Shown here: piece after piece, positions 12,372 to 45,586 of the stretch | Numbering within the stretch: position 1 is the first letter of the stretch | Layout: each line of letters starts with the position of its first letter | Source of the DNA: a virus | Taxonomy: Duplodnaviria; Caudoviricetes | IMG/VR virus record: IMGVR_UViG_3300021387_001614 | Location: 32,001 to 96,000 of that record | Length of the DNA: 64,000 bases | Reading direction: 5' to 3' (one strand) | Translations under genes and position numbers: made by a program | The notes under the pieces: model-generated | Database searches by the model: none | What the model saw: the letters and a program-made list of their open reading frames with translations, nothing else | Told to the model about the DNA's origin: nothing

Positions 12372-12404
12372 TAATTAGATATTTATATAGAAAAACACGA
12401 AAAA

Positions 12405-13757
12405 ATGAAAAAATACTTGACCTTATTTAATTCCCACGCTGAATACGAACAATACGTGAGCGGTAATTTTGAGAAGCCAAACGTATCACATTGCGTTCAG
12501 GAAGATGATGTACATTATAATCCTCTACATGACTATTCAAAGGATTATCTTACTTTTGTTGCCCTTGAAGACGGTACAATATCGTTTAACATATTGGACT
12601 CAATGGGAACTGATATGATTACCTCAATCAGTTATTCAACTGATAACGGTGAAACATGGACAACAACAGCAAATCAAAACAATAAACAAGAAAACCTTTC
12701 AATTGATGTTGATGTGAATGAAGGCGATAAAGTAATGTGGAAAGGCATCGCAACACAAACGGGATACTACTTTAACGATGACGATTTTGGTTATTATGTT
12801 GGCTCGTTTTTTAGTTCTGATTGCGAGTTTGATGCAAAGGGCAATGTGATGTCATTGCTTTATGGTGATGATTTCAAGGGTGAAACAACAATAGAGGAAG
12901 ATGCTACATTTTGCCGACTATTCTCTGATACTGATGAAGGAAAAACGTGTGGTGTTGTAAACGCCAAAGAATTATCATTACCTGCTACAACGTTGGCAAA
13001 TAATTGTTATGAAAATATGTTCTATTACTGTACAAGTCTAACATCAGCGCCTGAATTACCCGCCACTACATTGGCAAGTAGTTGTTATTTTGGTATGTTC
13101 TATGGTTGTACAGGTCTCACAACAGCACCTGAGTTACCTGCAACAACATTGGTATTTGGTTGTTATCGGAGTATGTTCGAAGGTTGCACAAGTCTTACAA
13201 CGGCACCTGTATTACCTGCAACGACATTGGCAGATTATTGTTATGCTTATATGTTCAATGGTTGTACAAGCCTTGTGACAGCACCCGAATTATCTGCTAC
13301 TACATTGGCATACCATTGTTATCAAGGTATGTTCGCAAATTGTTCAAGACTTACAACAGCACCTGAGTTACCTGCTACAACATTGGTAGGTTATTGTTAT
13401 AGTAATATGTTTAGAGGCTGTGTGGGTCTTATAACAGCACCTCAGTTACCTGCTACAACATTGGCAAGTTGGTGTTATGAAAGTATGTTCCAAGGTTGTA
13501 AAAGTCTAACAACAGCACCTCAGTTACCTGCCACTACACTGACAACTTATTGCTATCAGAATATGTTCAATGGTTGCACAAAACTTAATTACATCAAGGC
13601 AATGTTTACTACAACACCAAGTACAAGTTATACAAGTGGTTGGGTAAGTGGAGTTGCTGCAACAGGTACATTTGTAAAGAACAGTGCTGCAACATGGAAT
13701 GTTACAGGTGTTAATGGTGTTCCAAGTAGATGGACTGTTCAAACAGCAAGTGCATAA
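12405..13757 (+). CDS. BspA-like leucine-rich-repeat protein with 8 x 26-aa repeats (LRR-1)
   Basis: Repeats LPATTLxxxCYxxMFxGCTSLxTAPx; N-terminal module shared with 18073 and 36742; late-promoter motif at 12378. Confidence 0.85.
   Translation: MKKYLTLFNSHAEYEQYVSGNFEKPNVSHCVQEDDVHYNPLHDYSKDYLTFVALEDGTISFNILDSMGTDMITSISYSTDNGETWTTTANQNNKQENLSIDVDVNEGDKVMWKGIATQTGYYFNDDDFGYYVGSFFSSDCEFDAKGNVMSLLYGDDFKGETTIEEDATFCRLFSDTDEGKTCGVVNAKELSLPATTLANNCYENMFYYCTSLTSAPELPATTLASSCYFGMFYGCTGLTTAPELPATTLVFGCYRSMFEGCTSLTTAPVLPATTLADYCYAYMFNGCTSLVTAPELSATTLAYHCYQGMFANCSRLTTAPELPATTLVGYCYSNMFRGCVGLITAPQLPATTLASWCYESMFQGCKSLTTAPQLPATTLTTYCYQNMFNGCTKLNYIKAMFTTTPSTSYTSGWVSGVAATGTFVKNSAATWNVTGVNGVPSRWTVQTASA
12978..13590 (+). 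repeat. Intragenic 78-bp tandem repeat (8 units)
   Basis: Recurring ttacctgcwacaacattgg...gttat...atgttc...gttgtaca...acagcacct every 78 bp. Confidence 0.9.
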
Positions 13758-13783
13758 AAACATCTATATATCAAACACACAAG

Positions 13784-13842
13784 TGGCATTTTAAGGGTAT
13801 TTATGTTAAAATATTAACGGAACCAACAGGTGTATAGTTCCC
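13784..13842 (+). mobile_element. Orphan right end of an IS-A-type IS1595 element
   Basis: 50/59 gapless identity to 19006-19064, ending in the terminal ...tatagttccc; no partner end found nearby. Confidence 0.8.
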
Positions 13843-13850
13843 ATTATAAA

Positions 13851-13883
13851 AAATGAGCAGCCAAATTAATGGTTGCTCATTTT
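13851..13883. terminator. Bidirectional intrinsic terminator between the convergent LRR-1 and recombinase genes
   Basis: aaaatgagcagcca-aattaa-tggttgctcatttt hairpin with A/T tails. Confidence 0.7.
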
Positions 13884-13885
13884 CT

Positions 13886-15085
13886 TTATTCATCAAGCGT
13901 TTCCTCTTCTCCGAATATAATATCCTCTGCCGACATTTCACCCTTATCATCGTCAGGTGAGTCCTTAATTTCTTCGAGTTTCGATAAAATATCCTTTATG
14001 TATGTCTTTTTATATTCCTCAAGTGACTCTTCGGGAATAATGCCGTTATGCACACAACACATTGTGCCTGAATACGTTATATTAAATGGTGTTGGTAGTT
14101 GATTCTTTGTCACCGCAATCTTTGTTATAATACCGTAATTATACGTATCGCCCTTTGCCGTTGCAGTGAGTTTCTTTGTTGCCGCCTTTGCAACACCACC
14201 CAAGTGAATAATCAGTCTTGCGCCATAGAAGAATGTCTTTCCACCCTTTAACTCGATTGATGGTATTCCCGGCATACCGTTCATACTGTCATTCCAAATC
14301 TTATTAACACAGAACATTGTGTTCGTGTATTTCTCACTAACTTTTCTCGATGTCGGTATTCTGTTGTTAATCAGACTGTTAAATGCCTGTGAAATTGCAC
14401 CTGCATCGAACATGTTGTTGTTCGATTTGCTTGAATATGACTTAAAGGATGTTATCGAACCAATACTATCCCATATGAAACATATTGGCTGCTTAATTTT
14501 TCCTTCATCCTGCATATCAAGGATTTCATTAATGGAAAGCGCAATATCCTCCAATACTGCAACATTTCTGCGTTTTGACACGCGCTTACCTGCTGAATGG
14601 TCAAAATCACCATATTTTTTCGTAAGCGTTTTCGTATCGAAATAAACAAAGTTGCCACGATACTTAATAATGTCAGTTGTTATTTCGCCCGTTTCTTCAT
14701 CAAGAATTTCGCCATAAACGGGAGTTGCATCAACGCCACAATCAATTGCATATTTCCAATCGAAATTGCCCTCAGTTTCATATATAACAGGTAAAATACC
14801 CTTCTTTTGACACGCTGCAATGAGACAGTTTTTAATTGTTGATTTTCCCGTATTAGACCATCCCGTTACCAAAGTCAGATATCCCATGGGGATTCCCGGC
14901 AATTTTAATGCATCTTCAAAAGCCTTTGGCAGTGGTATAAACTCTGTTGGTTTTTCCGCGTTTGACGTTTCCAAGTCGCTTCGCTTAATCGGCTTACTTG
15001 ATTCCTCTATTTCAAGTCCAAGTAACTTATTTATGTCATCAGCTGAAGGTATTACAAATGTTTTCTTTTTAATCGCTTGTTTCAT
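13886..15085 (-). CDS. RecA/UvsX-like recombinase (likely start 15085, MKQAIKK)
   Basis: PGIPMGYLTLVTGWSNTGKST Walker A, IWDSIGS Walker B, VNKIW, GGKTFFYGARL. Confidence 0.85.
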   Translation of the reverse strand: MKQAIKKKTFVIPSADDINKLLGLEIEESSKPIKRSDLETSNAEKPTEFIPLPKAFEDALKLPGIPMGYLTLVTGWSNTGKSTIKNCLIAACQKKGILPVIYETEGNFDWKYAIDCGVDATPVYGEILDEETGEITTDIIKYRGNFVYFDTKTLTKKYGDFDHSAGKRVSKRRNVAVLEDIALSINEILDMQDEGKIKQPICFIWDSIGSITSFKSYSSKSNNNMFDAGAISQAFNSLINNRIPTSRKVSEKYTNTMFCVNKIWNDSMNGMPGIPSIELKGGKTFFYGARLIIHLGGVAKAATKKLTATAKGDTYNYGIITKIAVTKNQLPTPFNITYSGTMCCVHNGIIPEESLEEYKKTYIKDILSKLEEIKDSPDDDKGEMSAEDIIFGEEETLDE

Positions 15086-15698
15086 ACTTTTTAACTCGTT
15101 GTTTTTCTCTAATTTTTTGTTTCCAGCATTTTCTACACATCGGTTGATAAATATCATCACCACCGACAAGAACTTGCTCACCCTCCGTTATTATATTTTC
15201 ATCCTTATCAAACCTTGCATTTATGGATGCCTTTTTGTTACATTTACAACTTGATTTTAATTCTTGAAACTCATCAGCTATTTCAAAAAGCCTTTTTGAT
15301 GCCGGAAAAAGTTTTGACCTAAAATCTGTGCGTAATCCATAACATAGAACGTTAACACCCATTAAATCAACAACGTCCGATAATTGGTCTACCTGTTCCT
15401 CAGTTAAAAACTGACATTCATCAACCAATACCCACATTAACGGTTTGGCTTGTTGTGCCATAAGAACGTTATTATATTGATGTATTGCCTCATATATATC
15501 AACGTTACTATTAACACTAACACACGCCCTTTTTAATCCTGCTCTTGATTTAATCATGTTCTTTCCATCTCGTGTATCAATGGATGGCTTAAGAACCATG
15601 AAAGGTATACCTTTTTCTTCAAAATTATACGCCGTTGCAAGGAGGTTTAGGGTTTTTGACGAACCCATTACACCATAAAAAAATCTTAGCTTAGCCAT
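15069..15698 (-). CDS. tdk: Thymidine kinase (type II)
   Basis: FFYGVMGSSKT, KPSIDTRDG, VDECQFL, YGLRTDF, Zn-binding CKC...CRKC. Confidence 0.95.
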   Translation of the reverse strand: MAKLRFFYGVMGSSKTLNLLATAYNFEEKGIPFMVLKPSIDTRDGKNMIKSRAGLKRACVSVNSNVDIYEAIHQYNNVLMAQQAKPLMWVLVDECQFLTEEQVDQLSDVVDLMGVNVLCYGLRTDFRSKLFPASKRLFEIADEFQELKSSCKCNKKASINARFDKDENIITEGEQVLVGGDDIYQPMCRKCWKQKIREKQRVKKYETSD

Positions 15699-15709
15699 TT
15701 ACATGTTTT

Positions 15710-16693
15710 TTAGAATGGTAACGCATCTTCTGCGTTATTATCTGTATCGGACTGAGTACCTGCCGTTATGGTATTTTTCTCAACCCAATTTGTAAAGTCG
15801 GAGTTTTCTTCTGTTAGATTTTCAGCAAGTTCCTTTTCATCTTCGATTTTTTGTTTTTCCTGCATCACAGATTTATCGACATATTTACCCAATTCTTTAT
15901 CGTAAACGGGAGTACCGCCCTCTACAATAACTGCCATATAGTCATAAGGTTTTACTGTAAATACGTCAGTCCATTTCTTTTCGTCGTTAACCCATGATTC
16001 TGCTTTATCAAAGTCGGTTGACAGTGGTGTGCTGATACTCTTGTCAGTTACCTGTACGCTTGTTTTGTTGTTAGAATCCTTTGTCAGAGTAATAACAAGG
16101 TCTTTTCCTGTATTAAGGTCAAAAATATTGTTTTCAATACCTTCTTCTTTACCTTCTTCCCACCTCGTTTTAAACAAGTTCATTATTTTATCATACACAC
16201 CATCCTTTTTTCTCGAATGAGTGAAAAGCCAAAACTTAACGCCGTCTTCCTCATGGCCACGTTCAATACATCTAACAATCCACGATTCCTTAACACGATT
16301 GAGAAATTCGATGTCACCATATTTCTTTTTCTCGATTTCCGAATTAGATGCAAACCTTAGTCGTTTAGCCTCTTCCGACGTTTCACAGAATGGGCACTTA
16401 TGTTTGTCATCTAAGTCATTTTTTTCGGGGCACACAAATGTCTTCCACCCGCTACTTGTAACTTCCTTGTTAACTTTAACGGTATGCATGTGCACCTTTT
16501 TAAATGGGCTTCCACCCTCAGGAGAAAATGGCAACAATCTGATTGTTATTTTCTTTGTGGTTTCGTCTGAACCTAACCTTGCTTGGAGATAATTTTTAAC
16601 ATTAAATTCAGTCTTCTTTTTTGGGACGTAAGTTTCCTGTTCGTTTTGGCTGATTACAGCAGCCGCATCAATGTTTACATTTAAATTACTCAT
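15710..16693 (-). CDS. Single-stranded DNA-binding protein, T4 gp32-like
   Basis: TIRLLP, FVCP...CPFCE zinc site, GVKFW, FDLNTGKDL, acidic tail ending EDALPF. Confidence 0.8.
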   Translation of the reverse strand: MSNLNVNIDAAAVISQNEQETYVPKKKTEFNVKNYLQARLGSDETTKKITIRLLPFSPEGGSPFKKVHMHTVKVNKEVTSSGWKTFVCPEKNDLDDKHKCPFCETSEEAKRLRFASNSEIEKKKYGDIEFLNRVKESWIVRCIERGHEEDGVKFWLFTHSRKKDGVYDKIMNLFKTRWEEGKEEGIENNIFDLNTGKDLVITLTKDSNNKTSVQVTDKSISTPLSTDFDKAESWVNDEKKWTDVFTVKPYDYMAVIVEGGTPVYDKELGKYVDKSVMQEKQKIEDEKELAENLTEENSDFTNWVEKNTITAGTQSDTDNNAEDALPF

Positions 16694-16742
16694 AAAAAAT
16701 TAATATTTAAAAATGCGTATCAGTATACGCTTAAATTCAGTG

Positions 16743-16774
16743 CAAATATACATAAAAAATGTTAAAAAACCAAA
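16743..16774 (-). promoter_or_regulatory. Bacteroidota sigma-type promoter (TTTG-N20-TATATTTG) for the ssb-tdk-recombinase operon
   Basis: Matches the established Bacteroides -33 TTTG / -7 TAnnTTTG consensus. Similar sites at 21646-21677(-), 36320-36351(+), 41707(+), 45721-45751(-) and 60339-60369(-). Confidence 0.75.
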
Positions 16775-16811
16775 ATTCCGGCAAATTATTTTTTTAAAAT
16801 GCCGGAATTTT
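16772..16811. terminator. Intrinsic terminator-like hairpin
   Basis: aaaattccggca ... tgccggaatttt, 12-bp stem. Confidence 0.55.
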
Positions 16812-17023
16812 TGTGTTGGCTTTAAGTACCATTGGCATTTACTGCCAACTGCTATATTATTATCGGGAACTATATACCTGTTGTCCCCGAACATAGCGAC
16901 TAGCAAACTTTAACTTTTGTCTAGCTATCCTTAACTTAAAAAATTCCCGTTTTACTGGAAAAATGCGTACCTTTGTATTACCTTTAAGACAAAGGAATAA
17001 CATTCAGTAAAACGGGAATAATT

Positions 17024-18019
17024 ATGATAGATTTCACAAATTTCAAGTCACTCAAATCGGTAATCAGACACTTCAACAATGAAGACATCTGCAAGCAAAC
17101 GCTTGTGGAGGCACGTTGGGGTGGCGATGTTGTTTGTCCTCATTGCGGACAGCACCATTGCACCATGCGCAAGGACGGACGTTATCGCTGCAACCATTGC
17201 AAGCATAACTTCTCTTGTACCACAGGTACAATATTTCAGAACACCAAGTTGCCACTTCAAACTTGGTTCATTGCCATGTATCAGGTGTCTTCACACAAGA
17301 AGGGCATTTCCTCATTGCAGATAATGCGTGACTGCGAGGTCACTCAGAAGACCGCTTGGTTCATTCTGCACAAGATTCGTGGTCTCTACGGCATTACCGA
17401 TGAGATTGCCCTTGACGGAGAGGTGGAGATGGACGAGATGTACCTTGGTGGACGTGAAATAAACAAGCACGAAAGCAAGAAGACTGAGGGTACACAGGGT
17501 CGCTCTACCAAGACCAAAACACCAATCTTCGGTATGATTCAGCGTGGTGGCAACGTTGTTGCAATGAAGGTGGACGATACAAAGGGTGCTACCTTGATGC
17601 CCATCGTGAGCCAATTCGTTGAGAGTGGTGCTACCACTTATACGGATGAAGCCAACATCTACCACAAGTTGTCAGAGAACGGCTATGAGCACCTTTTCGT
17701 TAATCACTCACAGCGTGAATACGTCCGTGCCAATGACATTCATACCAACGGAATTGAGGGGTTTTGGGCACATTTCAAGCGTGTCATTTTCTCTACCTAT
17801 CACAGCGTTTCCAAGGACTATGTACAGCGTTATATTGACGAGCAGTCATATCGTTGGAATACCCGTAAATGGAATGCTTCTGAGCGTTTTGAGGATATGT
17901 TCAAGAAGGCTGCAAAGTCCTTTGAGTATGCTGACGTTCTGAGCCTTTCAAGCGTTATTGACGTTGTTGCTTGGAAGACCAAGCACGATAGTTACTATTG
18001 GGCAGGAAAGGTTGCATAA
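17024..18019 (+). CDS. IS1595-family (ISXO2-like) DDE transposase
   Basis: Zn ribbon CPHC...RCNHC, HTH region KGISSLQI...TAWF, catalytic VEMDEMY, YTDE, HTNGIEGFW. Confidence 0.95.
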   Translation: MIDFTNFKSLKSVIRHFNNEDICKQTLVEARWGGDVVCPHCGQHHCTMRKDGRYRCNHCKHNFSCTTGTIFQNTKLPLQTWFIAMYQVSSHKKGISSLQIMRDCEVTQKTAWFILHKIRGLYGITDEIALDGEVEMDEMYLGGREINKHESKKTEGTQGRSTKTKTPIFGMIQRGGNVVAMKVDDTKGATLMPIVSQFVESGATTYTDEANIYHKLSENGYEHLFVNHSQREYVRANDIHTNGIEGFWAHFKRVIFSTYHSVSKDYVQRYIDEQSYRWNTRKWNASERFEDMFKKAAKSFEYADVLSLSSVIDVVAWKTKHDSYYWAGKVA

Positions 18020-18072
18020 ATGAAATTGAGCAACCACTATTGGATTACTCAATTTGTATGTCATTATAGAAC

Positions 18073-18888
18073 TTAAAGTATTCCTTGTGAAGTCCAATTT
18101 CGATATCCAAGATTTCCATCATTTCCCATCCAAGACGAGTAATCACTACCACTTGGATAATATAATACTCCACCTTCTTTGACATATGCCCAAAAGCCTG
18201 ATTGTATTGTTGGTGCAATAGTTGGATATGCGTAGATGGTTTCAAGACTCGTACATCCTTGGAACGCATTAATAATCATTGTTGATACACTACTTGGTAT
18301 TGTTATGCTTTGTAAACTACTACAATTGTAGAAAGCACCACCATCAATACTTGTGACACTATTGCCCATTATTACATTTGTAAGACTTGTACAATGACCA
18401 AAAGCACTACCACCAATGCTTGTAACACTATTCGGTATTGTTATATTCAATAAGTTTGTACAACTATTAAACGTACCAGCCATAATTGCGGTAACATTAG
18501 TTGGAATATTTACATTTGTAAGACTTGTACAATATTCGAATACATTATAATTAAGGCTTGTAACACTATTTGATATTGTTGCCTCTGTAAGAGCGGAACA
18601 ATGGGAAAATGCACCGTTTCCAATACTTGTACATAATTCCCCAACCTCAACACTAACAAGCGTGTTTTTATATATATCACTTACCATTGCTTTTGTCAGT
18701 TCTCCGCTTCCTTCAAGTTCAACTACGCTGTCATCACTGAGTGTCAGTTTGCAGAAGAAAGGTGGCTTATTATAATGTACCGTATTATCTCCCTCTACAT
18801 ATGATACATAAGGTTCTATATATGTTTCACCATCTTCATAAGTCAGTCTTTCAGCATCGGTGCTGAATAGTTTTAAGTAATCTCCCAT
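18073..18888 (-). CDS. BspA/TpLRR-type LRR protein (23-aa repeats), passenger of IS-A (LRR-2)
   Basis: IPNSVTSIGGSAFGHCTSLTNV repeats; N-terminal YLKLF...VSYV...VHYN module; late motif at 18926 inside the element. Confidence 0.9.
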   Translation of the reverse strand: MGDYLKLFSTDAERLTYEDGETYIEPYVSYVEGDNTVHYNKPPFFCKLTLSDDSVVELEGSGELTKAMVSDIYKNTLVSVEVGELCTSIGNGAFSHCSALTEATISNSVTSLNYNVFEYCTSLTNVNIPTNVTAIMAGTFNSCTNLLNITIPNSVTSIGGSAFGHCTSLTNVIMGNSVTSIDGGAFYNCSSLQSITIPSSVSTMIINAFQGCTSLETIYAYPTIAPTIQSGFWAYVKEGGVLYYPSGSDYSSWMGNDGNLGYRNWTSQGIL

Positions 18889-19071
18889 ATTTATATATGA
18901 TATTAGTTATGTTATTATTCTACAATATAAATATCCCGACAAGAAGAGAAATTCCTGTTGGGATATTGTTTATTTTGATATTTTGTATTATATTTGTACC
19001 CGAAATGGTAATTTAAAGATATTTATGTTAAAACATTAACGGGGACAACAGGTATATAGTTCCCTTATTAT

Positions 19072-19632
19072 CTATTTTTTACGAAATCTTTTCGGGCGGT
19101 CTTTTAGGTTACGATTCCCATAATATGAATTCATCAAACCCTTTGTTCTTCTTTTGGCACTCCTTGAGAATCTTTTATAAAAATCTGATAATTCATCATT
19201 GGATAAATCATCGAAATTTTCATAATCATTGAAATGATACGAATCATACGCAAAAATACTATCCGGATTTTCTTTATAATGTCCAAAATCTATACTAATA
19301 TCATCATCACCTATTGGTTTTCTCCATTCTTCAAAGTCATCTCCGTGTATATAATTAGAAAGTGTCCCGACATAATTGTCTTTATCTTTCCACGAATATG
19401 ATTGGAATACTCCATAATCTTTGTCATCAGGCATACAATATTCAAGAGTTTCATCTTGGTCTTCAACCGCCCCATCTTCGAGTGACCTAAGAAAATTATA
19501 AAGGTCTTTGATTTTGTATTTATTCCACTCTCTATCTATCTCTTCCTTTGAAGCCTCTCTCAATATTTTTTTTACCGACCTCTTTACAATCTTATGCAAG
19601 TCAGACTCTGTTAATCTTACTCTTTTTTTCAT
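19072..19632 (-). CDS. Hypothetical protein with N-terminal RLTESDL module (possible internal virion protein)
   Basis: MKKRVRLTESDLHKIVKRSVKKILRE; likely start at ATG 19632. Confidence 0.65.
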   Translation of the reverse strand: MKKRVRLTESDLHKIVKRSVKKILREASKEEIDREWNKYKIKDLYNFLRSLEDGAVEDQDETLEYCMPDDKDYGVFQSYSWKDKDNYVGTLSNYIHGDDFEEWRKPIGDDDISIDFGHYKENPDSIFAYDSYHFNDYENFDDLSNDELSDFYKRFSRSAKRRTKGLMNSYYGNRNLKDRPKRFRKK

Positions 19633-19662
19633 ATTGTTTTTATATGCATTCATCAAATTATT

Positions 19663-20496
19663 TTAATAACCAAATATCTTATTTATATCCTGCTTCAGGT
19701 CATCATCAACATAAAAACTTTGTGCCATATCTCTTTCTGTCATGTCATCAACGTCATTATTGGTGATTACATATTCTTTTGATGTTGGCTCTTGGTTGTC
19801 AAAATATGCGTCATAATTGCTTGTCATACCTTTTTGTTTCCAATAATCAACAGGATTAACGTTAAATGGATATGAATCGAGTGAACGCAAATTCAATTTT
19901 TCGGTTTGTGTCGGGTTTCTTTTTTGGAATTCCTGATTTAACGCCTCGATGTTATTATTATTGCTGTCAATCATGGTTTCCATTTTTTCGATTGCTGTTA
20001 AGAGTTGGTCGATTCGATGATTAACCTTAACCACATCACGCCCTACCGCATTAACTTTATCATTAACCTTTTCCTCTGCGTTGGTAATATCTTCGACATC
20101 AATAACTTCTTCTTCATCACCACCCATAGCGTCGTCCATTGGCATACCGTCATCCATTGGCATATCGCCACCCATGGAATCATCCATAGGGGGTTCATCC
20201 ATTGGCATACCGTCTGTATTTGGGTCGCCCATTGGTGCACCGCCCGCATTAGGGTCGCCCATTGGTGCACCGCCCGCATTGGTGTCATCCATTGGCATAC
20301 CGTCTGCATTTGGGTCGCCCATTGGTGCACCGCCTGCATCCTGAGGCTGTTCGCCGCCCATAGGGTCGTTATTATTCATGTCTTGGTCATCATCAGCCTC
20401 TTCAACAGTACCATAGCCAAAACCTTCTACAATTCTCTTAAAGTGCTTATGTGCCTCATAAAGATTGTTTTCCTTAAGATATTTTACGTTTGTCAT
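19663..20496 (-). CDS. Acidic low-complexity/coiled-coil protein (possible prohead core or scaffold-associated)
   Basis: M/G/D/P-rich repeats followed by a coiled coil; xLxE motifs near the N-terminus. Start ATG 20496 or TTG 20508. Confidence 0.55.
   Translation of the reverse strand: MTNVKYLKENNLYEAHKHFKRIVEGFGYGTVEEADDDQDMNNNDPMGGEQPQDAGGAPMGDPNADGMPMDDTNAGGAPMGDPNAGGAPMGDPNTDGMPMDEPPMDDSMGGDMPMDDGMPMDDAMGGDEEEVIDVEDITNAEEKVNDKVNAVGRDVVKVNHRIDQLLTAIEKMETMIDSNNNNIEALNQEFQKRNPTQTEKLNLRSLDSYPFNVNPVDYWKQKGMTSNYDAYFDNQEPTSKEYVITNNDVDDMTERDMAQSFYVDDDLKQDINKIFGY
20191..20340 (-). repeat. Five 30-bp tandem units (GGAPMGDPNA / DGMPMDDTNA)
   Basis: gggtcgcccattggtgcaccgcc and tcatccattggcataccgtctg recur at a 30-bp period. 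Confidence 0.85.
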
Positions 20497-20664
20497 TTCT
20501 TTAGTCAATCAATAATTCTTTATTATCTTCTGTTAAAACCGTTACTGAACTTTCAGTTCTCTCGATTAAGCCCCTATCTTTTTTGATACGCTTAAACTCT
20601 TGGCATAAAGTCTCGTTACCGAGAATTTCTTCTGCCATTTTAATTTTTTCTTTTGTATCCATCA

Positions 20665-20934: not shown

Positions 20935-21033
20935 ATTCTTAAAATTTTTTGTGAATGTTTAAGTGCGAAAAGCACATTTTTCTTTATAAATATCTGTATT
21001 TACAAAAAATGCAACCTTTAAAGGGGTTGCATA

Positions 21034-31800: not shown

Positions 31801-32553
31801 ATTTTCATCAAAAAACGAACGGGTTTTTTCTGAGCCATTCCTATAAAAATCGTTGTAAGTACCAAGCGACTTAAAAGTGCCATAATTACTTTCATCAAGT
31901 GGTCCCACAATGTTTTTAAGAGGACTTAAATCTTCGAATCTACCGGTTTCTTGACTTTTCTTATCTGAGATTTCAAGGATTTTGTTTTCGAATGCCTTTG
32001 TATTCATTCCGAAATATTCCTTCATAGGTTCGGAAATCGAAAATTTCTTTGCTGCCCTATCATCATTTGCCCTTATTGCATTTGACATGGCAGTATCAAC
32101 AAGAATACTTGTGGTTTTACCCAACATCGTATCCCTATCAGAAAAATTGGGATTTGTAATAATACTGCGACCATTCGAGTTTATTGCTTCTTCAAGCCCT
32201 CTACCGCCAATAACGCCAACTGCCGTATCATCTGAATGAAGGATATAATCTATTTCGTTGTTTATATTAAGTATGCTCGTACTTGCACCATAAACACCCC
32301 TTATATAATCGAGATAATTAGAATATGAAGATTTGTCATCATCATTAATAAACCAAGGGGTTTCCATTATAGCGTTATAATATGGGTTAGACAGTGTGCC
32401 TATTGGAGTAGAATACCCGTCATACGTGAAATTTCCCGTTCCGATATTTCTATCCAAATGTTCAACCATAAACTGATAACTTTTGTTATACAGTCCTATA
32501 GGTCTCACCACAAAACTATCTAAAACATTAATAATACCGTCTAATATTCCCAT
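28861..32553 (-). CDS. Tail tube initiator/baseplate protein with an inserted OmpA-like domain
   Basis: WNSTQFIGRGEDIYTY and PVCVLRIGDFY tube-initiator-like motifs; IEGVGYAS...N..L...RAKTV...R OmpA-like pattern. Confidence 0.6.
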   Translation of the reverse strand: MGILDGIINVLDSFVVRPIGLYNKSYQFMVEHLDRNIGTGNFTYDGYSTPIGTLSNPYYNAIMETPWFINDDDKSSYSNYLDYIRGVYGASTSILNINNEIDYILHSDDTAVGVIGGRGLEEAINSNGRSIITNPNFSDRDTMLGKTTSILVDTAMSNAIRANDDRAAKKFSISEPMKEYFGMNTKAFENKILEISDKKSQETGRFEDLSPLKNIVGPLDESNYGTFKSLGTYNDFYRNGSEKTRSFFDENISRNKFKFIEGSDYITSLKITPGAETLNSTQVRHIFQTLAAHKNIDINGALWSYAETENGVNGDINGGFNGGIAYGYVTSYGGSTLSANDLLKKTNDNFRNDKYKTLVARFHTKSTDIDMGDSTQTAISKKYGMSKGRNLLKVTPDKSEGYDNPYCRVWTYHHQYHRLSDAIRPLIDNDKVVSQGDLENVYNFSSFRTPDSGLGSGGSRLSKYGSMHSSPNGLVNITPIDDGENKISIKNCMFSIENLAWKGMYGEGRLSDEQRGPFGGRIMWFPPYGLQLNESVNVSWNSTQFIGRGEDIYTYTNTSRRGGLSFKLLIDHPSILDFWTNRNNNEMSSTVDDINSSEQQLLRFFAGCDMLTAKDIPLRQDNQVAFDDTVPKPETMSITFMVFYPNDYSGESDTSTKPGSARPSAYVPMAYLANGVGAMKRANGTDYSILPLVKVYSDSGHTKQVGGYEVRDGVGVSIVSSSDTKSSSITDVWWLDDTSKTYKRLSLGKIVGDKNRNAKWAYRVDEKRKNEKLDESADYVDRQSFKLNSGGHRKEICETYGISEDTLYSFTDVYVAMVGTDAANVLAGYYDPTRVKALNDMLSKYKIGSIEGVGYASSHGHTPNENVNLERNNTLIKNRAKTVLNWLKNCKKVSSCGSWPEPNVGRVGGPGGKRGDASALNAKLYRAAKITINLQVENTKTAQQTLTEDNVITEDGFLARATNLIKGTKETPPNSSNVNIQADGTTAKDTYKEQSDKNSKVDDTQTTGNRTIKNTDGSTTMVQNNDKAGQPEMKAESGTTTVIEDVGDYHRYDEEAEFFKLLKVNDPFMHHKITDKIKYFDPAFHSISPEGFNARLTFLHQCTRQGPTVGASDEIVKSANNLAFGRQPVCVLRIGDFYYTKIIIESISITYDPLVWDLNTEGIGVMPMIANVQMNFIFIGGSDIAGPIARLQNAVSFNYYANTGVYDDRAEQIEYNDDHTGKINKIKLFP

Positions 32554-32570
32554 TTTATTTCTCTTTATCT

Positions 32571-36666: not shown

Positions 36667-36686
36667 TGAAAAGTTTTGGTAAAAGA

Positions 36687-36719
36687 AAAGGGATAATCGT
36701 TGTTTGAGATTATCCCTTT
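36687..36719. terminator. Bidirectional terminator
   Basis: aaagggataatc...gattatcccttt stem between convergent genes. Confidence 0.7.
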
Positions 36720-36741
36720 ATTTTTATTGTTTTATTCAGAA

Positions 36742-38310
36742 TTATGCGGATGCTGTCTGAACAGTCCAACCACTTGGAACTGCATAACTGCCAACATAGG
36801 TCCATTGTGCTGCATTGTTCTTGACAAATGTACCTGATGATGCAACATTCAGTACCCAATTACTTGTATAACTTGAAGCCGGATATGTTGTGAACATTGC
36901 CTTGATGTAGTTAAGACTTGTACACCCTTGGAACATAGAAGCATAACATTTACTTACCAATGTAGTAGCAGGTAACACAGGTGCTGTTGTAAGACTTGTA
37001 CAATTTTGGAACATACCACTATAACAATAATTTGTCAATGTAGTAGCAGGTAACTCAGGTGCATTTACAAGGCTTGTACAACCATAGAACATATTTTGAT
37101 AACAATTTTGTACCAACGTTGTAGCAGGTAATACAGGCGCATTTACAAGACTTGTACAACCTCGGAACATGGCATTGTAACAACTACTTACCAATGTTGT
37201 GGCAGGTAATTCGGGTGCTGTCACAAGGCTTGTACAATTAAAGAACATTCCTCTATAACAATTTTCTGCCAATGTGGTAGCAGATAACTCAGGTGCTGTT
37301 ACAAGACTTGTACAACCATCGAACATATATTGATAACAACTACTTGCCAATGTAGTTGCAGGTAACTCAGGTGCTGATGTTAGATTTGTACAACCTTGGA
37401 ACATATAAGCATAACAACTTTCAGCCAATGTTGTTACAGGTAACTCAGGTGCGGTTGTAAGACTTGTACAACCATTGAACATTTTTTCATAACAATTCTT
37501 TGCCAATGTTGTTGCAGGTAACTCAGGTGCCGTTACAAGACTTGTACAACCATTGAACATATAAGCATAACAACTTTCAGCCAATGTTGTTACAGGTAAC
37601 TCAGGTGCTGTTGTTAGTGCTGTACAACCATAGAACATATAACCATAACAACTACTTACCAATGCAGTTGCAGGTAACACAGGTGCTGTTGTCAGTCTTG
37701 TACAACCTTGGAACATAGTATCATAACAATAAATTGCCAATGTTGTTGCAGGTAACTCAGGTGCGGTTGTAAGACTTGTACAACTATTGAACATACCACT
37801 ATAACAACTACTTGCCAAGGTTGTTGCAGGTAAAGAAAGATTTTCAGCATTTACTACCTTTGCATTTCCACTGAACAATCTATAAAAAGCATAACTTTTT
37901 CCTGTAAGGTCTGTTTGTCCCTTAAAGTTATCCCCATATAATAATGACATTGCATTTCCTTGTACGTCAAACTCTGCTGTTGAACTAAATCTGCCAACGC
38001 CATTTGAAGTCGGTGTTATTTCACCTTTCCACATTATCTTGTTCCCTGCCGTTACGGTTGGACTTGCGGTTGCAGCAGCCAATTCTGTCCATGTTTCACC
38101 ATTATCCAACGAATAACTTACAGCATTAGTGCTTAATTGGAATGTACCGTCTTCCCTTGCCACAAATGTTAGGTATTCTTCTGCCCATGTCCAAGGGTTA
38201 TAATGCATGTCATCTTCTTGTACACAATGTGATACATTCGGAAGAATCATTCCACTCTCAGCATATTCTTCATATTCTTCGTGTGTTTCAAATAGTTTTA
38301 CGTATTTCAT
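36742..38310 (-). CDS. BspA-like LRR protein with 12 x 26-aa repeats (LRR-3), paralog of LRR-1; start 38310 (MKYVKLF)
   Basis: Same N-module (PNVSHCVQEDD.HYNP), middle domain, repeats and C-cap (..WTVQTASA) as 12405; late motif at 38324. Confidence 0.85.
   Translation of the reverse strand: MKYVKLFETHEEYEEYAESGMILPNVSHCVQEDDMHYNPWTWAEEYLTFVAREDGTFQLSTNAVSYSLDNGETWTELAAATASPTVTAGNKIMWKGEITPTSNGVGRFSSTAEFDVQGNAMSLLYGDNFKGQTDLTGKSYAFYRLFSGNAKVVNAENLSLPATTLASSCYSGMFNSCTSLTTAPELPATTLAIYCYDTMFQGCTRLTTAPVLPATALVSSCYGYMFYGCTALTTAPELPVTTLAESCYAYMFNGCTSLVTAPELPATTLAKNCYEKMFNGCTSLTTAPELPVTTLAESCYAYMFQGCTNLTSAPELPATTLASSCYQYMFDGCTSLVTAPELSATTLAENCYRGMFFNCTSLVTAPELPATTLVSSCYNAMFRGCTSLVNAPVLPATTLVQNCYQNMFYGCTSLVNAPELPATTLTNYCYSGMFQNCTSLTTAPVLPATTLVSKCYASMFQGCTSLNYIKAMFTTYPASSYTSNWVLNVASSGTFVKNNAAQWTYVGSYAVPSGWTVQTASA
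36912..37833 (-). repeat. Intragenic 78-bp tandem repeat (12 units)
   Basis: caggtaactcaggtgc...gacttgtacaacc...gaacat...ataaca recurs every 78 bp. Confidence 0.9.
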
Positions 38311-38402
38311 GTTTTTTTTTTCTAATAAATATCGGGAATTCACAATGGTCACATATTTCCTATTGTTTTTTTCGCATTTTTTTTTATTTTTTAAAAAAAG
38401 AC

Positions 38403-39535: not shown

Positions 39536-39539
39536 AGAT

Positions 39540-40814: not shown

Positions 40815-41043
40815 GTATGAAAGAGCACTCAAAGAAGAACTTTTTGGTTGTTTTAAATATGTTGGCATACCTTTAGACGTGTTGGATAAAATGCCCGTTA
40901 GGGATAGAAAATTTTACATAGCCAAACATAATCAATATGTAGAGCAAGAAAACCAAGCACGCAACAGTGGCAATGCGTCGTCAACAGAAGCGATAGAGGG
41001 ATTTACATCTCTTGAGCAAGACCAAATAAAAAACAGAAACTAA
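40795..41043 (+). CDS. Second chaperone segment (gp51/gpT-like), probably reached by frameshift from 39540
   Basis: ISPEYERALKEELF...LDKMPVRDRKFYI; overlaps the upstream stop and has no good ATG before the conserved part. Confidence 0.6.
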   Translation, partial: FSSISPEYERALKEELFGCFKYVGIPLDVLDKMPVRDRKFYIAKHNQYVEQENQARNSGNASSTEAIEGFTSLEQDQIKNRN

Positions 41044-41050
41044 AAATAGG

Positions 41051-41127
41051 AAAACCTACCAATATCACATGTTGGTAGGTTTTTTATATCATGGCGATAA
41101 AAAATGGCACATGAAACATGTGCCAAT
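41051..41127. terminator. Two hairpins between convergent operons
   Basis: aaacctaccaa..ttggtaggttt and tggcacatg-aaa-catgtgcca. Confidence 0.65.
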
Positions 41128-41151
41128 GCGCCAAACTCGTTGATTGTTAGA

Positions 41152-41640
41152 TTAGTATGCGAGTATTGCATAGTCAAATCTCAGCGTTGCCTGTATTGTG
41201 GCAAGGTCGCTTGAACTATAATCCAACTCACCGAAGTTTACGTTGGTTAACATGGTGTTCTTCAATATCCACTTGGAAACCACAACACCGGTAGGGTCAA
41301 GCATTTCAAGTTCAACGTCACGTTTATAACCTGCTGCGTAACCTTGTCTACCCGTAACAGATTCTGACTGTAAACGCACCCATTCCATAATTGCCTGTGA
41401 TGCTGACGGTCCAATTGGGTCACGGAAAGTCACATTTATCTGTTCCCACTGATATCTACCAACAACATATGTTGATGTGTTGATAAATGGGATTGGGGTT
41501 TCTTCTTGTGTGATAGAAGGACGGGAAGCACTTGACAGCCACCACTCTTGTATTCCTAAGTCAGCTGGAAATCTAAAAAGCCATCGGTTTTTGCGAAGCG
41601 GTTCAAACTGCAACGGCGCCTTCAAAAGTAAATCACTCAT
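41152..41640 (-). CDS. Tail tube protein (gp19-like)
   Basis: EPLRKNRW, RPSI, YVVGRYQWEQINVTFRDPI, YKRDVELEMLDPTG, FGELDYS. Confidence 0.9.
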   Translation of the reverse strand: MSDLLLKAPLQFEPLRKNRWLFRFPADLGIQEWWLSSASRPSITQEETPIPFINTSTYVVGRYQWEQINVTFRDPIGPSASQAIMEWVRLQSESVTGRQGYAAGYKRDVELEMLDPTGVVVSKWILKNTMLTNVNFGELDYSSSDLATIQATLRFDYAILAY

Positions 41641-41741
41641 TTTTCTTATTATTAATCTAGATTATTATTTTATTATAAATATATTGGTTTTTAAAAATAA
41701 AATCCGTATATTTGCAAAAACTATTTCTAAAAACAATATAA

Positions 41742-42056
41742 ATGGAAAAATACGAAATATTGACAGAGGGAAATAAATGCTTAAAAAACTCCCCCGTTTT
41801 TTTTAGGTTTCTAAAAGAAAACCAAATTTATGATAAATGGATAGAGAATAGAGCTAAATTTATTAAACATGAATTGTTAGCCAAATATCCTTGGCGAGGG
41901 ACTATATGCCACACTTATTTTCCACAAAAAGCACTTTTAACCAAATATCAAACTTCCTTTGCGTGGAATGAAACACCTGAGGGTTTTACCTATTGGGACA
42001 ATATAAATACGAGATACTTAAAATTTCTTACAGAAAATCCCATCGACACAGTTTAA
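41742..42056 (+). CDS. Hypothetical protein, moron-like
   Basis: Own TATATTTG promoter (41707) and terminator (42033-42072); FAWNETPEGFTYW motif. Confidence 0.6.
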   Translation: MEKYEILTEGNKCLKNSPVFFRFLKENQIYDKWIENRAKFIKHELLAKYPWRGTICHTYFPQKALLTKYQTSFAWNETPEGFTYWDNINTRYLKFLTENPIDTV

Positions 42057-42091
42057 GTCCGATGGGATTTTTCTCATTATTGGGAAGAAAT

Positions 42092-42478
42092 TTAAAAATC
42101 ACCAAATTCAGCCCTATTTTTCATTTGGCGTTCTTTTGCTTTTTGTATTGTTTCTTTGTCGAGTTCTCTCTTCATCAACATGTTACCCTTTGTTCTGAAA
42201 AGACGGTCTGAATTATTTTTAGCCGTACCACGTTTTTCATTTTCTCTTTCAGAATAATAAACATCAGGATTAACAATCATATTAGCCTTGCCCGCCTTTT
42301 CTTTGGCTGCTTGGTATTGACGAACAGCCTCAAGCCACGCCTTTGTTCCCTTCTTCGACCTCTTTACCCTTGCCTTAAGTGCCTCTAGGTCTTCCTCTTC
42401 TTTTATAATTCTTTTTACTGAATTACTAATAATTCTATGAAGGTCAGATTCCGTTAATCTTATAAGTTTTTTTGCCAT
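42092..42478 (-). CDS. Basic protein with N-terminal RLTESDL module
   Basis: MAKKLIRLTESDLHRIISNSVKRIIKEEE. Confidence 0.65.
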   Translation of the reverse strand: MAKKLIRLTESDLHRIISNSVKRIIKEEEDLEALKARVKRSKKGTKAWLEAVRQYQAAKEKAGKANMIVNPDVYYSERENEKRGTAKNNSDRLFRTKGNMLMKRELDKETIQKAKERQMKNRAEFGDF

Positions 42479-42493
42479 ATCTTTTTAATGTTT

Positions 42494-42865
42494 TTAATCT
42501 TTATTTCCGGTATCGGTTAGAACTTTATCGCTCTCTAAGAAGACCTTTTTGAAAAATTCATATAAACTCGATGTCGGGCTATCTGAATATTTTTTCAACC
42601 CCTCTATTGCGGTCTCTCTAATTTTACCGATAATAGGCTCATGGCGAATAACTTCATTTGCATGCATTTCTTTCTCCTCTACGCTATCACCACGTTCCAT
42701 GTCATCGTGTCCGCCACGCATTTCTCTTTCATCATAAGGCATTTCATCACCTCCACCCATTTCGGGAGAATCAGAAAATTCGTCATCAAAAACATATGCC
42801 TCGCTTAAATATTTTTTGGCTTCATTTAATGTTCTCATGAAGTCGTTTTTAATGTTTCTTCTCAT
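42494..42865 (-). CDS. Hypothetical acidic protein (start 42865, MRRNIK)
   Basis: Late motif at 42880; LNE/LSE motifs. Confidence 0.6.
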   Translation of the reverse strand: MRRNIKNDFMRTLNEAKKYLSEAYVFDDEFSDSPEMGGGDEMPYDEREMRGGHDDMERGDSVEEKEMHANEVIRHEPIIGKIRETAIEGLKKYSDSPTSSLYEFFKKVFLESDKVLTDTGNKD

Positions 42866-42924
42866 ATTTCTATTTTCTATATAAATATTATCATAAACAA
42901 AAAATGCAGCCATTCTGGCTGCAT

Positions 42925-43084
42925 TTAAGTATTTTTTAACGTTTTAGTCGATTTCCAAACATATTTAACGATTCCACAATCATATATTCTAAAAATCTCA
43001 AGTTTTTTTGTCATTTCCAATTCTGTCATCGAAAGCGGAAAACCGTATTTCTTATGAAGGATTTGCTTTCTAAAATTAAACTTA
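42925..43084 (-). pseudogene. 3' remnant of a Hef-like homing endonuclease gene
   Basis: KFNFRKQIL...MTELEM...RIYDCGIVKYVW C-terminus, cut at the IS-B left end. Confidence 0.65.
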
Positions 43085-43196
43085 GGTAATGATATAGCAG
43101 TTGGCACAAAATAGGCTGTTATACGTATAGAAATGTCCTATAAACGCTGGACTTTTCGTAAATTTGCATTATAATTTAAAAGAAAAGTTCAGCGTT

Positions 43197-44183
43197 ATGA
43201 TTAATTTCAAGAAGTTCAACAACATCATTTCACTCACAGCGTATTTCACCTCTGATGAGAAGTGCAAGCAAGCCATTGTTGAGAGCCGTTGGGGTGTTGG
43301 CAATGAACAAGACGTTGTTTGCCCATATTGTGGTAAGCATCACTGCAAAATGTCCAAGAATGGACGTTTCCATTGCACTGAGTGCAACAAGAACTTTTCT
43401 TGCCTCGTTGGTACTATCTTCGAGAACACAAAGTTGCCACTCATCAAGTGGTTCGTTGCAATGTATCTTATATCTTCTCATAAGAAGGGTATCAGTAGCC
43501 ATCAACTGAGTCGTGACCTTTCAGTTACACAGTCAACTGCTTGGTATATGCTTCAGAAGATTCGTCTTCTTTACCCTCAGAGCGATGCAGATGCATTTGA
43601 GGGTACTGTTGAGTGTGATGAGGTGTACATCGGTGGTAAGGAAAAATGGAAACATAAGTCAATGCGCACTCCCAATACCCAAGGTCGTTCCATGAAGACC
43701 AAGACTCCAGTCTTTGGTATGATGGAGCGTAGCACCTTTGAGAATGAGAAGGGTGAGATTGAGCCTATTACGTATGTCCACGCATTCGTTGTTGAGAACA
43801 CGAATAGAGCCACATTACAGCCAATCATTCAGCAGTTCGTTGCTGATGGTTCAAGAGTCATCACTGATGAACTCAATGCATACAATGGACTTGCTGAGTT
43901 AGGATATACTCACGCTGTGGTTGCCCACGGTGCTGAAGAGTATGCCAATGGTGACGTATTCACCAATAGTATTGAGGGCTTTTGGAGTCACTTCAGACGT
44001 ATGATTGTTGGCTGTTATCACGATGTGTCTGATGAGCATCTTCAGCAGTACATTGACGAGGCTGTGTATCGTTGGAATACAAGAAAAATGAGCGAATCAG
44101 AGAGATTCGCCCATATGTTCGACAAGTCAATCGGGCTTGTTCGTAGATGGAGTGAAATTAGAGTTGGTCTGATGGCTGCATAG
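43197..44183 (+). CDS. IS1595-family (ISXO2-like) DDE transposase (start 43197, MINFKKF)
   Basis: CPYC...CTEC Zn ribbon, VECDEVY, ITDE, FTNSIEGFW; homologous to 17024. Confidence 0.95.
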   Translation: MINFKKFNNIISLTAYFTSDEKCKQAIVESRWGVGNEQDVVCPYCGKHHCKMSKNGRFHCTECNKNFSCLVGTIFENTKLPLIKWFVAMYLISSHKKGISSHQLSRDLSVTQSTAWYMLQKIRLLYPQSDADAFEGTVECDEVYIGGKEKWKHKSMRTPNTQGRSMKTKTPVFGMMERSTFENEKGEIEPITYVHAFVVENTNRATLQPIIQQFVADGSRVITDELNAYNGLAELGYTHAVVAHGAEEYANGDVFTNSIEGFWSHFRRMIVGCYHDVSDEHLQQYIDEAVYRWNTRKMSESERFAHMFDKSIGLVRRWSEIRVGLMAA

Positions 44184-44196
44184 ACAAGTATAACAA

Positions 44197-45018
44197 TCAT
44201 CTACGCATTGTTTTTAATATATGTTTACCTGAACTCGTTTGCTCTAAGAAAAAGTCCATACCTTGTTCAATTGCATTGTGTATTATATCTGCCACAGTTG
44301 CATATGCACGTTCATCTAAAATCCATTTTTTTAGCCTTTCTTGATATTGGTCCATTATATTATCATATGCCATATCTGTTGCCTTAGAAACATCATTATA
44401 CAATTCATCATAGCCTGATGCTAACGACCAATGTTCTTTCAATACTCTATTTACTGATTCTTTTACTATCTGTTTCAAATCACTTTCTGTGAGCCTAATC
44501 TGTTTCTTGTTCATATTTGTATATTTTATTTCTGTTATTATTTCTGGTGTTTCGTTTGGTCTTAATACCATTACTTTTGCGTGTTTGTGAGTGTTTGCCA
44601 ATGGGTCTTTAAAACCTTTGTTTTGCCATATATTCTGAACTGCTTGATTTATTAGTGCTGCATCATTATCATCAAGTATTTGGCAGTTGTAAACATACTG
44701 TATAACCTCAAATGATTTCCTTTCACCAACAACATTTCCTTGTTTATCTTTTATTTCCATGTCTACAGACACATCAGATTTATCTTCTCCGTTTTCCGAA
44801 TAAACCACACAAGTGTTTATTGCATAGGATGGGTCATAGTCTTTGTCATACCAAGTCCACAACCAAGTTCCGTGATTTGAAATTCTTGCTTGCATAGGTC
44901 TGCTATCTTCCATCCTATAAGTTCTATAATATGAAGTGTCTCTTCTGTTTGGTTTGAAACCACCATTACGTCTAATTAACTCTATTGCTGTATTAAAATC
45001 AATCATTTTGTTAAACAT
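44197..45018 (-). CDS. IS-B passenger: unknown N-terminal domain fused to an internal RLTESDL module
   Basis: ARISNH-containing domain, then MNKKQIRLTESDLKQIVKESVNRVLKE from 44514; late motif at 45025. Confidence 0.7.
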   Translation of the reverse strand: MFNKMIDFNTAIELIRRNGGFKPNRRDTSYYRTYRMEDSRPMQARISNHGTWLWTWYDKDYDPSYAINTCVVYSENGEDKSDVSVDMEIKDKQGNVVGERKSFEVIQYVYNCQILDDNDAALINQAVQNIWQNKGFKDPLANTHKHAKVMVLRPNETPEIITEIKYTNMNKKQIRLTESDLKQIVKESVNRVLKEHWSLASGYDELYNDVSKATDMAYDNIMDQYQERLKKWILDERAYATVADIIHNAIEQGMDFFLEQTSSGKHILKTMRR

Positions 45019-45068
45019 TTCTAATATAAATAGTTTGTAAGAAAGAAAAATATTAATTTTGCAGCATT

Positions 45069-45539
45069 ATGGCAAAGCAATACAATTCACTTTCTTTTTT
45101 TGATTACCCACCAACAGAATTGTTGGGTAGCAATATCTATGAAAACTCTATTAAAAGGTTATCATTTCAATACAGAACTAAAAATGAGGATAAACTCATT
45201 GCTTATATTGCTGTATCTCAAGACAAACCTAATATAGATGTACCAAATGTAGAAAACCAAATGAATGGTTGCAGAATCTTAGGTATTTATACAGAAAATT
45301 ATCAAATAGGGCACTATCAAGTAACAGATTTACAATTATTAGGGGCTTTACTTGATGAAGCTGAGTTTTACATTAAAGGTTGGGTTAATAACCAAAATGG
45401 TCAATTCCAATTTGATTACTTGTGGTTCAATGTGGTTGATTTTGATTCACAAGATGTTGTAGAAAGAATAGATAATATGATATTGAATAATGGTATAGCA
45501 TATAAACTTATAAAAAGAAATGAGCAGCCAAATCATTGA
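45069..45539 (+). CDS. IS-B passenger, hypothetical (possible degenerate GNAT fold)
   Basis: 156 aa; KLIAYIAV...RILGIY...LLGALLDEAE...FDYLWF; TAATTTTG promoter box at 45054. Confidence 0.55.
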   Translation: MAKQYNSLSFFDYPPTELLGSNIYENSIKRLSFQYRTKNEDKLIAYIAVSQDKPNIDVPNVENQMNGCRILGIYTENYQIGHYQVTDLQLLGALLDEAEFYIKGWVNNQNGQFQFDYLWFNVVDFDSQDVVERIDNMILNNGIAYKLIKRNEQPNH

Positions 45540-45586
45540 CTGCTCATTTTAAATAAGCAATTTGTGCCAACTGCTATATTATTGCC

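Follow-up and report, generated by a model that had tools for sequence, protein, structure and literature searches.

Two cargo-carrying IS1595-family transposons in a rumen phage genome fragment, with relatives in jumbo phages and Prevotella chromosomes

A 64,000-nucleotide stretch of the IMG/VR virus record IMGVR_UViG_3300021387_001614 (positions 32,001 to 96,000 of that record; hereafter the window) contains two insertion sequence (IS) elements, IS-A and IS-B, whose passenger genes share short protein modules with resident genes of the same genome. What are such transposons doing in a phage, and how is their cargo acquired? Phage genomes are reported to contain few insertion sequences and to tolerate them poorly (PMC3429520), so the recurrence of this family in many jumbo-phage contigs is notable. 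We put at roughly three in four the probability that both elements belong to a single large IS1595 subfamily of cargo carriers, with a promoter in the backbone, two phage-typical families of cargo, and a life in both phages and bacterial chromosomes. The full record is 146,936 bases long, with a CheckV completeness of ∼44%; among its products are a tail sheath (PHROG 23, E 3.5e-54) and some very large proteins. Contigs closely related to it measure 235–412 kb, and the sequencing runs that contain the record are cattle gut or rumen metagenomes. We read the source DNA, from these sequence features, as a 147-kb fragment of a rumen Bacteroidales jumbo myophage.

IS-A (16865-19064, plus strand) is a complete transposon of 2200 bp, bounded by perfect 25-nt inverted repeats (left, 16865-16889; right, 19040-19064; 25/25 identical). 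No chance matches to these repeats are expected, and none occurs elsewhere in the window within three mismatches. An 8-bp target duplication, TTATTATC, flanks the element (left copy 16857-16864, right copy 19065-19072), the right copy overlapping the stop codon of the neighboring gene 19072 by one base. The 331-residue transposase (17024-18019, plus strand) matches Pfam PF12762 (E 8e-45) and PF12760 (E 2e-12). The passenger (18073-18888, minus strand) is a BspA-type leucine-rich repeat (LRR) protein of 271 residues (LRR_5, PF13306, E 3.9e-48) that carries an LRR N-module of ∼40 residues and is 40–50% identical to a resident 1533-residue LRR protein of the same genome. Upstream of it, within the element backbone, lies a promoter region (18886-18996, minus strand).

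The insertion of IS-A is recent and polymorphic. When contigs of four public runs were compared with window positions 16000-20000, X3 and X5, which belong to two different cattle studies, each yielded one that joined position 16856 directly to 19065, skipping 2208 bases with eight letters that fit both sides. The skipped length is accounted for by the 2200-bp element together with a single copy of the 8-bp duplication, and the flanks match over 458+161 bases in X3 and 538+126 bases in X5 with few differences. These contigs are the pre-insertion allele of the same phage locus. A first-pass annotation, made by reading the sequence of the window, had called for just such a comparison of filled and empty sites; because the exact empty site was recovered from two independent studies, it establishes the mobility of IS-A. 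Contigs of a cDNA metatranscriptome run, X19, match 16000-16375, 19367-19511, and 19910-20000 (genes 15710, 19072, and 19663) at 99% identity. None of them lies over IS-A, and such contigs cannot show transcription or its absence; the matches are a weak hint of phage activity in the sample, with DNA carry-over possible. A distant blastn search of INPHARED phage records gave no match to IS-A.

IS-B (43085-45586, plus strand; 2502 bp) has the same layout, and the Pfam matches, inverted repeats, and gene directions bear out the initial description of both elements as a transposase with a convergent passenger. Its 26-nt repeats (left, 43085-43110; right, 45561-45586) match at 24 of 26 positions. 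The transposase has 328 residues from its ATG (43197-44183, plus strand), within an open reading frame (ORF) that opens at a TTG at 43164, and matches PF12762 (E 6e-45) and PF12760 (E 2e-9). The DDE_Tnp_IS1595 domain (PF12762) is matched full-length in both transposases, both have the N-terminal zinc ribbon PF12760, and the two are 52.6% identical. Both elements are members of the IS1595 family, and the defining features examined are all present, the target duplication of the IS-B type being seen in a close relative at locus L027.

The main passenger of IS-B occupies an ORF at 44197-45018 (minus strand), the true start of which is probably Met5 (44197-45006). Most of its relatives, gathered as 278 representatives, align from their own residue 1 to query residue 5 and end at ∼196. 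A conserved 165-residue N-domain comes first, then the RLTESDL module (44434-44514), then a C terminus that varies; in passengers of this type, the variable portion begins after the module Glu. The AlphaFold model has a predicted local distance difference test (pLDDT) score of 81, above 90 in the N-domain, with the module modeled as one helix. Foldseek found no match to it in the PDB at E 0.001, nuclease-fold rows reaching a probability of only 0.07–0.21, and a VIA-align comparison of the full model, as opposed to the N-domain alone, matched just the helical tail, with Z <7, the level of common helical arrangements. A second passenger of 156 residues (45069-45539, plus strand) has no Pfam or PHROG match and is followed by a terminator-like hairpin (45520-45548). 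More widely, neither Pfam nor PHROGs had a match for the IS-B passengers, for the resident genes with the module, or for ten passengers of other loci.

IS-B has no target duplication in the window because it stands in place of ∼1 kb of an endonuclease-like gene, through either insertion followed by deletion or recombination between two copies. An N-terminal fragment of 38 residues (45587-45703, minus strand) starts its open frame at 45703 and runs into the repeat, and a C-terminal fragment of 52 residues (42925-43084, minus strand) matches the C termini of four intact homologs (422–625 residues) in related phage loci, the best three of which are 60–67% identical to it. By reading rather than by search, the 38-residue fragment resembles the N-terminal repeat motif of the intact homologs. 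An element at locus L027, 92% identical to IS-B, matches its three-gene layout and is flanked on both sides by a perfect 8-bp duplication, TAAGGAAA.

The ends of this subfamily carry GGGAACTATATACCTGTTG or its variant GGYAATRATATAGCAGTTGGC, and the two end types grade into each other. A 19-mer taken from the IS-A end is present at 23 IMG/VR loci and in at least 120 stretches of rumen Bacteroidales/Prevotella genome bins, and the core of the IS-B end in 10 loci. Pairing of ends gave ∼60 elements, roughly half of which (at least 30) are flanked by AT-rich 8-bp duplications, perfect or nearly so. Three classes of element can be told apart: empty miniatures of 150–600 bp, transposase-less cassettes with one or two genes, and full elements of 1.9–4.2 kb. 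At least one passenger is present in all 17 transposase-bearing copies. The same repeats and duplications without a transposase are seen at L012, L024, L007, L005, L014, L034, L038, and other loci. Within the cassette class, L012 (1279 bp) has perfect repeats, the duplication TACATTAT, and two convergent module genes; L024 (∼500 bp) and L007 (516 bp) each hold one module gene, of 132 and 98 residues, respectively; and L003 (1993 bp) holds a 578-residue LRR gene with the N-module. The elements are cargo carriers with a recurring plan of internal TATTTAT region, conserved module, and variable body, as proposed from the window, and transposase-less cassettes bounded by such ends carry the same types of gene. 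At L020 (11438-12885), IS-A-type ends flank a 374-residue ORF without an IS1595 transposase; by reading, the ORF resembles TnpB of IS200/IS605, and this could be a nested or hijacked element.

The cargo of these elements is strongly biased. Among the 17 full elements, 11 carry a gene with the RLTESDL module and two a gene with the LRR N-module. With a module profile built from the loci themselves, non-transposase genes with the module number 10/26 inside elements against 18/377 outside in viral loci (odds ratio 12, p 1e-6), and 10/31 inside against 8/664 outside in bacterial loci (odds ratio 39, p 2e-10), so the enrichment of modules in related elements that had been anticipated is present in both settings. 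Pairwise comparisons reveal how cargo is exchanged. IS-A and the chromosomal element L051 are 83% identical in DNA over the left repeat and the first 1088 bases; the passenger bodies, an LRR protein in one and a module protein in the other, have no likeness; and likeness resumes in the 110 nt that lead up to the passenger start (81% identical), which hold TATTTAT, and again at the right end. The promoter region with TATTTAT thus belongs to the element backbone. IS-B and L027 have in common the transposase, the ends and, of the cargo, only the stretch that codes for the module. Cargo is thus replaced far more quickly than the transposase, with the start codon or the module as the points of exchange.

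As first noted, each element contains a TATTTAT motif ahead of its passenger, on the minus strand at 18927-18933 in IS-A and 45026-45032 in IS-B. In the phage genome itself, 23 of 121 genes have it in the 60 nt before their start, mostly at a distance of 19–31 nt; this is ∼8 times what chance would give. Across all loci, the same 60-nt interval contains it in 19% of cases for phage genes and in 31–45% for genes inside elements, against 3.6% for bacterial genes outside elements. Most genes with an N-terminal module are preceded by the motif, those in bacterial chromosomes included, and in three of three complete related jumbo phages it precedes a scaffold-like gene beside the prohead protease. 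We infer that TATTTAT is a late or structural promoter of these phages. The scaffold-like gene (L154:2302-3570, L155:2371-3582, L156:2288-3469) codes for ∼400 residues directly after the S77 protease and probably is the scaffold; its N terminus is rich in a module-like K/E helix.

The RLTESDL module is common to the IS-B passenger and to two resident genes that carry it at the N terminus, gene 19072 (19072-19632, minus strand) and gene 42092 (42092-42478, minus strand). The sharing was seen correctly at the outset, but in the IS-B passenger the module is internal (residues 171-196) and not N-terminal. Across 26 aligned modules, apart from the start, no residue is invariant but the Glu at the close of (L/I/V/M)-x-E, and conservation ends there. 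By profile there are nine copies in the 147-kb record, 8–18 in three jumbo phages of 345–401 kb, and 0–4 in five bacterial bins of 2.1–3.4 Mb, a density ∼30–100 times higher in phages than in bacterial genomes. The bacterial copies examined lie inside elements or within ∼2 kb of an element end. In a collection of 5.8 billion proteins at least 6253 clusters match the module at E 0.01, nearly all of them metagenomic and without Pfam domains. A search with gene 42092 as a single protein returned only six relatives because the module is short, and an ESM Atlas look-up of gene 19072 gave nothing usable (best feature score 0.76; structural matches with template modeling (TM) scores <0.5).

What might the module do? 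The specificity of T4 gp21 is (L/I)-x-E. T4 internal proteins are diverse, their common part being only a capsid targeting sequence (PMC3012670), and in the giant phage SPN3US N-terminal propeptides of 20–254 residues are removed by the prohead protease (PMC10052503). Our best single guess, offered tentatively and by analogy, is that the RLTESDL module is a propeptide that targets proteins to the prohead and is removed by a protease of T4 type. The likeness lies in a short, conserved leader, ending in x-E, on unrelated and fast-changing proteins, and in the presence of the protease family in related phages: of five related jumbo-phage records with these elements, four encode a Peptidase_S77 that scores above the curated cut-off. 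The RLTESDL leader differs in having no sequence likeness to the T4 leader, and in that some copies ride transposons in bacterial chromosomes. We know of no T4 internal protein carried on a chromosomal transposon.

Alignment confirms that the LRR N-module (∼40 residues) is common to the IS-A passenger and two resident LRR genes, as the first-pass annotation had it. These are LRR-1 (12405-13757, plus strand; LRR_5, E 7.8e-9) and a gene at 36742-38316 (minus strand), for which the start was taken at an internal Met, 38316 probably being the true start. In all, four LRR proteins of this phage carry the N-module, one of them the 1533-residue protein encoded among fiber-like genes, a position that fits a role in virion attachment. 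The N-module may anchor fibers to the virion. Exchangeable tail fibers and spikes of phages have conserved N-terminal anchor domains, and one module on four LRR proteins of a single phage resembles that arrangement; a difference is that the N-module also occurs on chromosomal passengers (L144, L140). Tandem 78-nt LRR units of 26 residues fill both resident LRR genes (12899-13664 and 36836-37915), with copies 62–78% identical; the two arrays, on opposite strands, are 75–80% alike.

Solo ends mark earlier events beside resident genes, and the two relics first reported in the window are real. One, of IS-A right-end type (13781-13842, minus strand; tip at 13842), begins 23 nt after the stop of LRR-1 and is 84% identical to the last 62 nt of IS-A (profile match E 0.004); no partner end lies within 4 kb. 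The other, of IS-B type (16839-16864, minus strand), has four mismatches in 26 (profile E 0.12). IS-A inserted exactly at its tip, which in the empty-site allele abuts the stop of gene 19072. A third solo end, of IS-A type, lies outside the window at 100511-100532 of the genome. In this region (genome 99726-100532) the end stands ∼60 nt upstream of a 240-residue gene that starts with the second half of the module, a layout identical to that of the IS-A cargo and right end. Terminator-like hairpins after the LRR-1 relic (13843-13883) and by the right repeat in IS-B (45510-45550) are 83% identical, which suggests a mosaic of element pieces.

Could the resident paralogs be immobilized former cargo of these relics, as had been proposed? 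LRR-1 lies on the inner side of its relic, but its 3′ end points toward the tip, opposite to the orientation of the IS-A cargo, and no partner end accompanies it. For gene 19072 the proposal is rejected: the relic tip faces gene 19072, so that the gene is outside the former element. The surroundings of gene 19072 were also compared between phages. The gene order g21034-g19663-g15710 is kept in relatives, and g15710 is preceded by a gap of ∼175 nt in L160 and L204, where the slot of gene 19072 is empty; in L164 another module gene stands there. The relic at 16839-16864 is absent from the corresponding intergenic slot of related phages. On this alignment the hairpin and promoter before g15710 are ancestral, with gene 19072 and the IS-B-like end added in this lineage. 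A second module gene (genome 106499-107410) has the same geometry as gene 19072, with a weak end-like match. We read the slot before g15710 as a probable repeated landing site, which is not proof that gene 19072 was cargo. Next to this variable slot, gene 19663-20508, which is conserved in relatives, contains tandem 30-nt repeats (20131-20339).

The same transposons are found in bacterial chromosomes. Judged by reading of flanking proteins, as opposed to database matches, full elements lie near ribosomal proteins L21 and L27 (L051), beside the end of rpoC (L107), near transketolase (L116), near SecDF (L130), and among metabolic genes (L144). L051, L107, and L116 carry module passengers and L144 a passenger with the LRR N-module; further chromosomal passengers have the RLTESDL module (L117, L136, L152) or the LRR N-module (L140). 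The transposases of chromosomal full elements are 68–87% identical to that of IS-A, copies from Prevotella genome bins reaching 84–87%. In a maximum-likelihood tree built from 16 transposases, four label changes are required to account for the five viral rows, which are no more clustered than shuffled labels. Because the tree is intermixed in this way, the elements appear to move back and forth between jumbo phages and Prevotella/Bacteroidales chromosomes. GC content is 35–39% in elements everywhere, 36% in phage flanks, and a median of 48% in bacterial flanks. One chromosomal element, in a Cryptobacteroides bin (L130:4482-7628), carries three passengers, a module-like gene of 327 residues and two small genes; the first small gene may resemble the DUF4065/antitoxin-like family, and the two may be a toxin-antitoxin pair riding on the transposon.

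Several of these observations weigh against the reading of a shared subfamily with phage-typical cargo, and shape its rivals. Close relatives of IS-A, with 84–87% transposase identity, identical repeats, and RLTESDL or LRR-N passengers, lie in bacterial chromosomes; the IS-A transposase nests among Prevotella copies in a family that is abundant there; and the elements may be host transposons that only visit phages. Low element GC fits phages, yet is also common for insertion sequences. The loci were gathered by the repeat sequence itself, so that the counts describe elements with well-kept ends, the gene background is local, and the genome-bin counts are lower bounds. The module is internal in the IS-B passenger and some of its relatives, and some proteins have more than one copy. 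Profiles of T4 Gp23 capsid and S77 prohead protease found nothing in the window's own ∼44%-complete contig, which is a fragment. The strongest form of this objection would be that ordinary host insertion sequences landed in the phage by accident, with generic hypothetical passengers and an incidental likeness to phage genes. It draws on the at least 120 genome-bin stretches with many miniatures per bin, on the chromosomal origin of the transposases nearest to that of IS-A, and on the phage gene disrupted by IS-B. It is hard to reconcile with passengers whose modules and promoter motif abound in phages but are seldom seen in bacterial genes, with the occurrence of elements in many unrelated jumbo-phage contigs, and with the fact that bacterial module genes, in the genomes examined, lie in or beside these IS ends; we consider it quite improbable.

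At the other extreme, a strict version of the first-pass annotation would take the elements for phage-adapted transposons meant to move virion-addressed cassettes within and between phages, with resident paralogs as immobilized former cargo. Part of this stands: the cargo is biased, a phage-type motif lies inside the elements and is rare before bacterial genes, the module is far denser in phages, the slot of gene 19072 is empty in relatives, and the solo end at 100511-100532 lies upstream of a half-module gene in the layout of IS-A cargo. The occurrence of the same elements and cargo types in bacterial chromosomes, the intermixed tree, the position of gene 19072 outside the inner side of its relic, and the reversed, partnerless arrangement at LRR-1 make the whole of it doubtful. 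Commonness of the same elements and cargo in chromosomes had been named in advance as an outcome that would tell against adaptation to phages; it is found in part, and the enrichment for modules and motif is there nevertheless. A further alternative concerns the module itself, which might have a DNA-binding or regulatory function in aid of the transposon; a ribbon-helix-helix-like strand and helix, for instance, could act at the element's ends or promoter. Its tight association with the elements and its modeled form, a short extended piece and then one helix, would suit this role, for which the Arc proteins of IS605 offer a precedent: Arc repressors on IS605 transposons are described in a preprint (bioRxiv 10.64898/2026.09.24.754181). 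Eight of the nine module copies in this genome, however, lie outside any element, thousands of module proteins have unrelated C termini, conservation ends after one helix and so leaves no second helix of a ribbon-helix-helix fold, and there is no Pfam match at E 0.01. We hold this to be the least probable of the alternatives, very unlikely to be correct.

The observations are most consistent with the shared, cargo-carrying subfamily. Its backbone comprises two inverted repeats, a zinc-ribbon DDE transposase, and an internal TATTTAT promoter region that faces a cargo slot, in which the passenger coding sequence is exchanged from the start codon onward. The transposase would cut and paste the whole unit into AT-rich intergenic DNA, making 8-bp duplications, and may also move transposase-less derivatives, from empty miniatures of 150–600 bp to single-gene cassettes, a mobilization in trans to which the duplications alone point. 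The slot is filled mostly by RLTESDL-module proteins and by BspA-type LRR proteins with the 40-residue N-module, both typical of these phages, and the family would shuttle between jumbo phages and Prevotella/Bacteroidales chromosomes. A more far-reaching proposal, which we think unlikely, is that the transposons diversify two virion-loaded repertoires, capsid-packed and protease-trimmed RLTESDL proteins and LRR fibers, and that chromosomal copies under a phage-type promoter would fire only on infection by such a phage, as a reservoir shared by phages or as decoys encoded by the host and packed into progeny.

Much of this plan is familiar from other transposons. IS1595 elements with passenger genes are reportedly the "transporter IS" of ISfinder terminology, in the usage of Siguier and colleagues from 2009. 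The elements described here resemble that family in the zinc-ribbon DDE transposase, inverted repeats, 8-bp duplications, and extra genes between the repeats. They differ in that every autonomous copy recovered carries cargo; that the cargo promoter is part of the conserved backbone and resembles the phages' own structural-gene motif; that the cargo comes from two phage-typical families, not from resistance or metabolic genes; and that the elements reside not in chromosomes alone but also in the genomes of jumbo phages. Mobile insertion cassettes and miniature inverted-repeat transposable elements (MITEs) are transposase-less IS derivatives, such as MIC231 of Bacillus. L012, L024, L007, and L003 are like them in having the parental repeats and duplications without a transposase, and sometimes one or two passengers, and unlike them in carrying phage-type module genes in phage genomes.

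For jumbo phages, the subfamily offers a concrete and testable route to the quick turnover of accessory genes and to the passage of genes between the phages and the Prevotella/Bacteroidales that they infect. A very large uncharacterized protein family, of at least 6253 clusters, also becomes approachable through the RLTESDL leader that defines it. Should that leader serve to load proteins into the capsid, the transposons would be shuffling injected proteins by nature.

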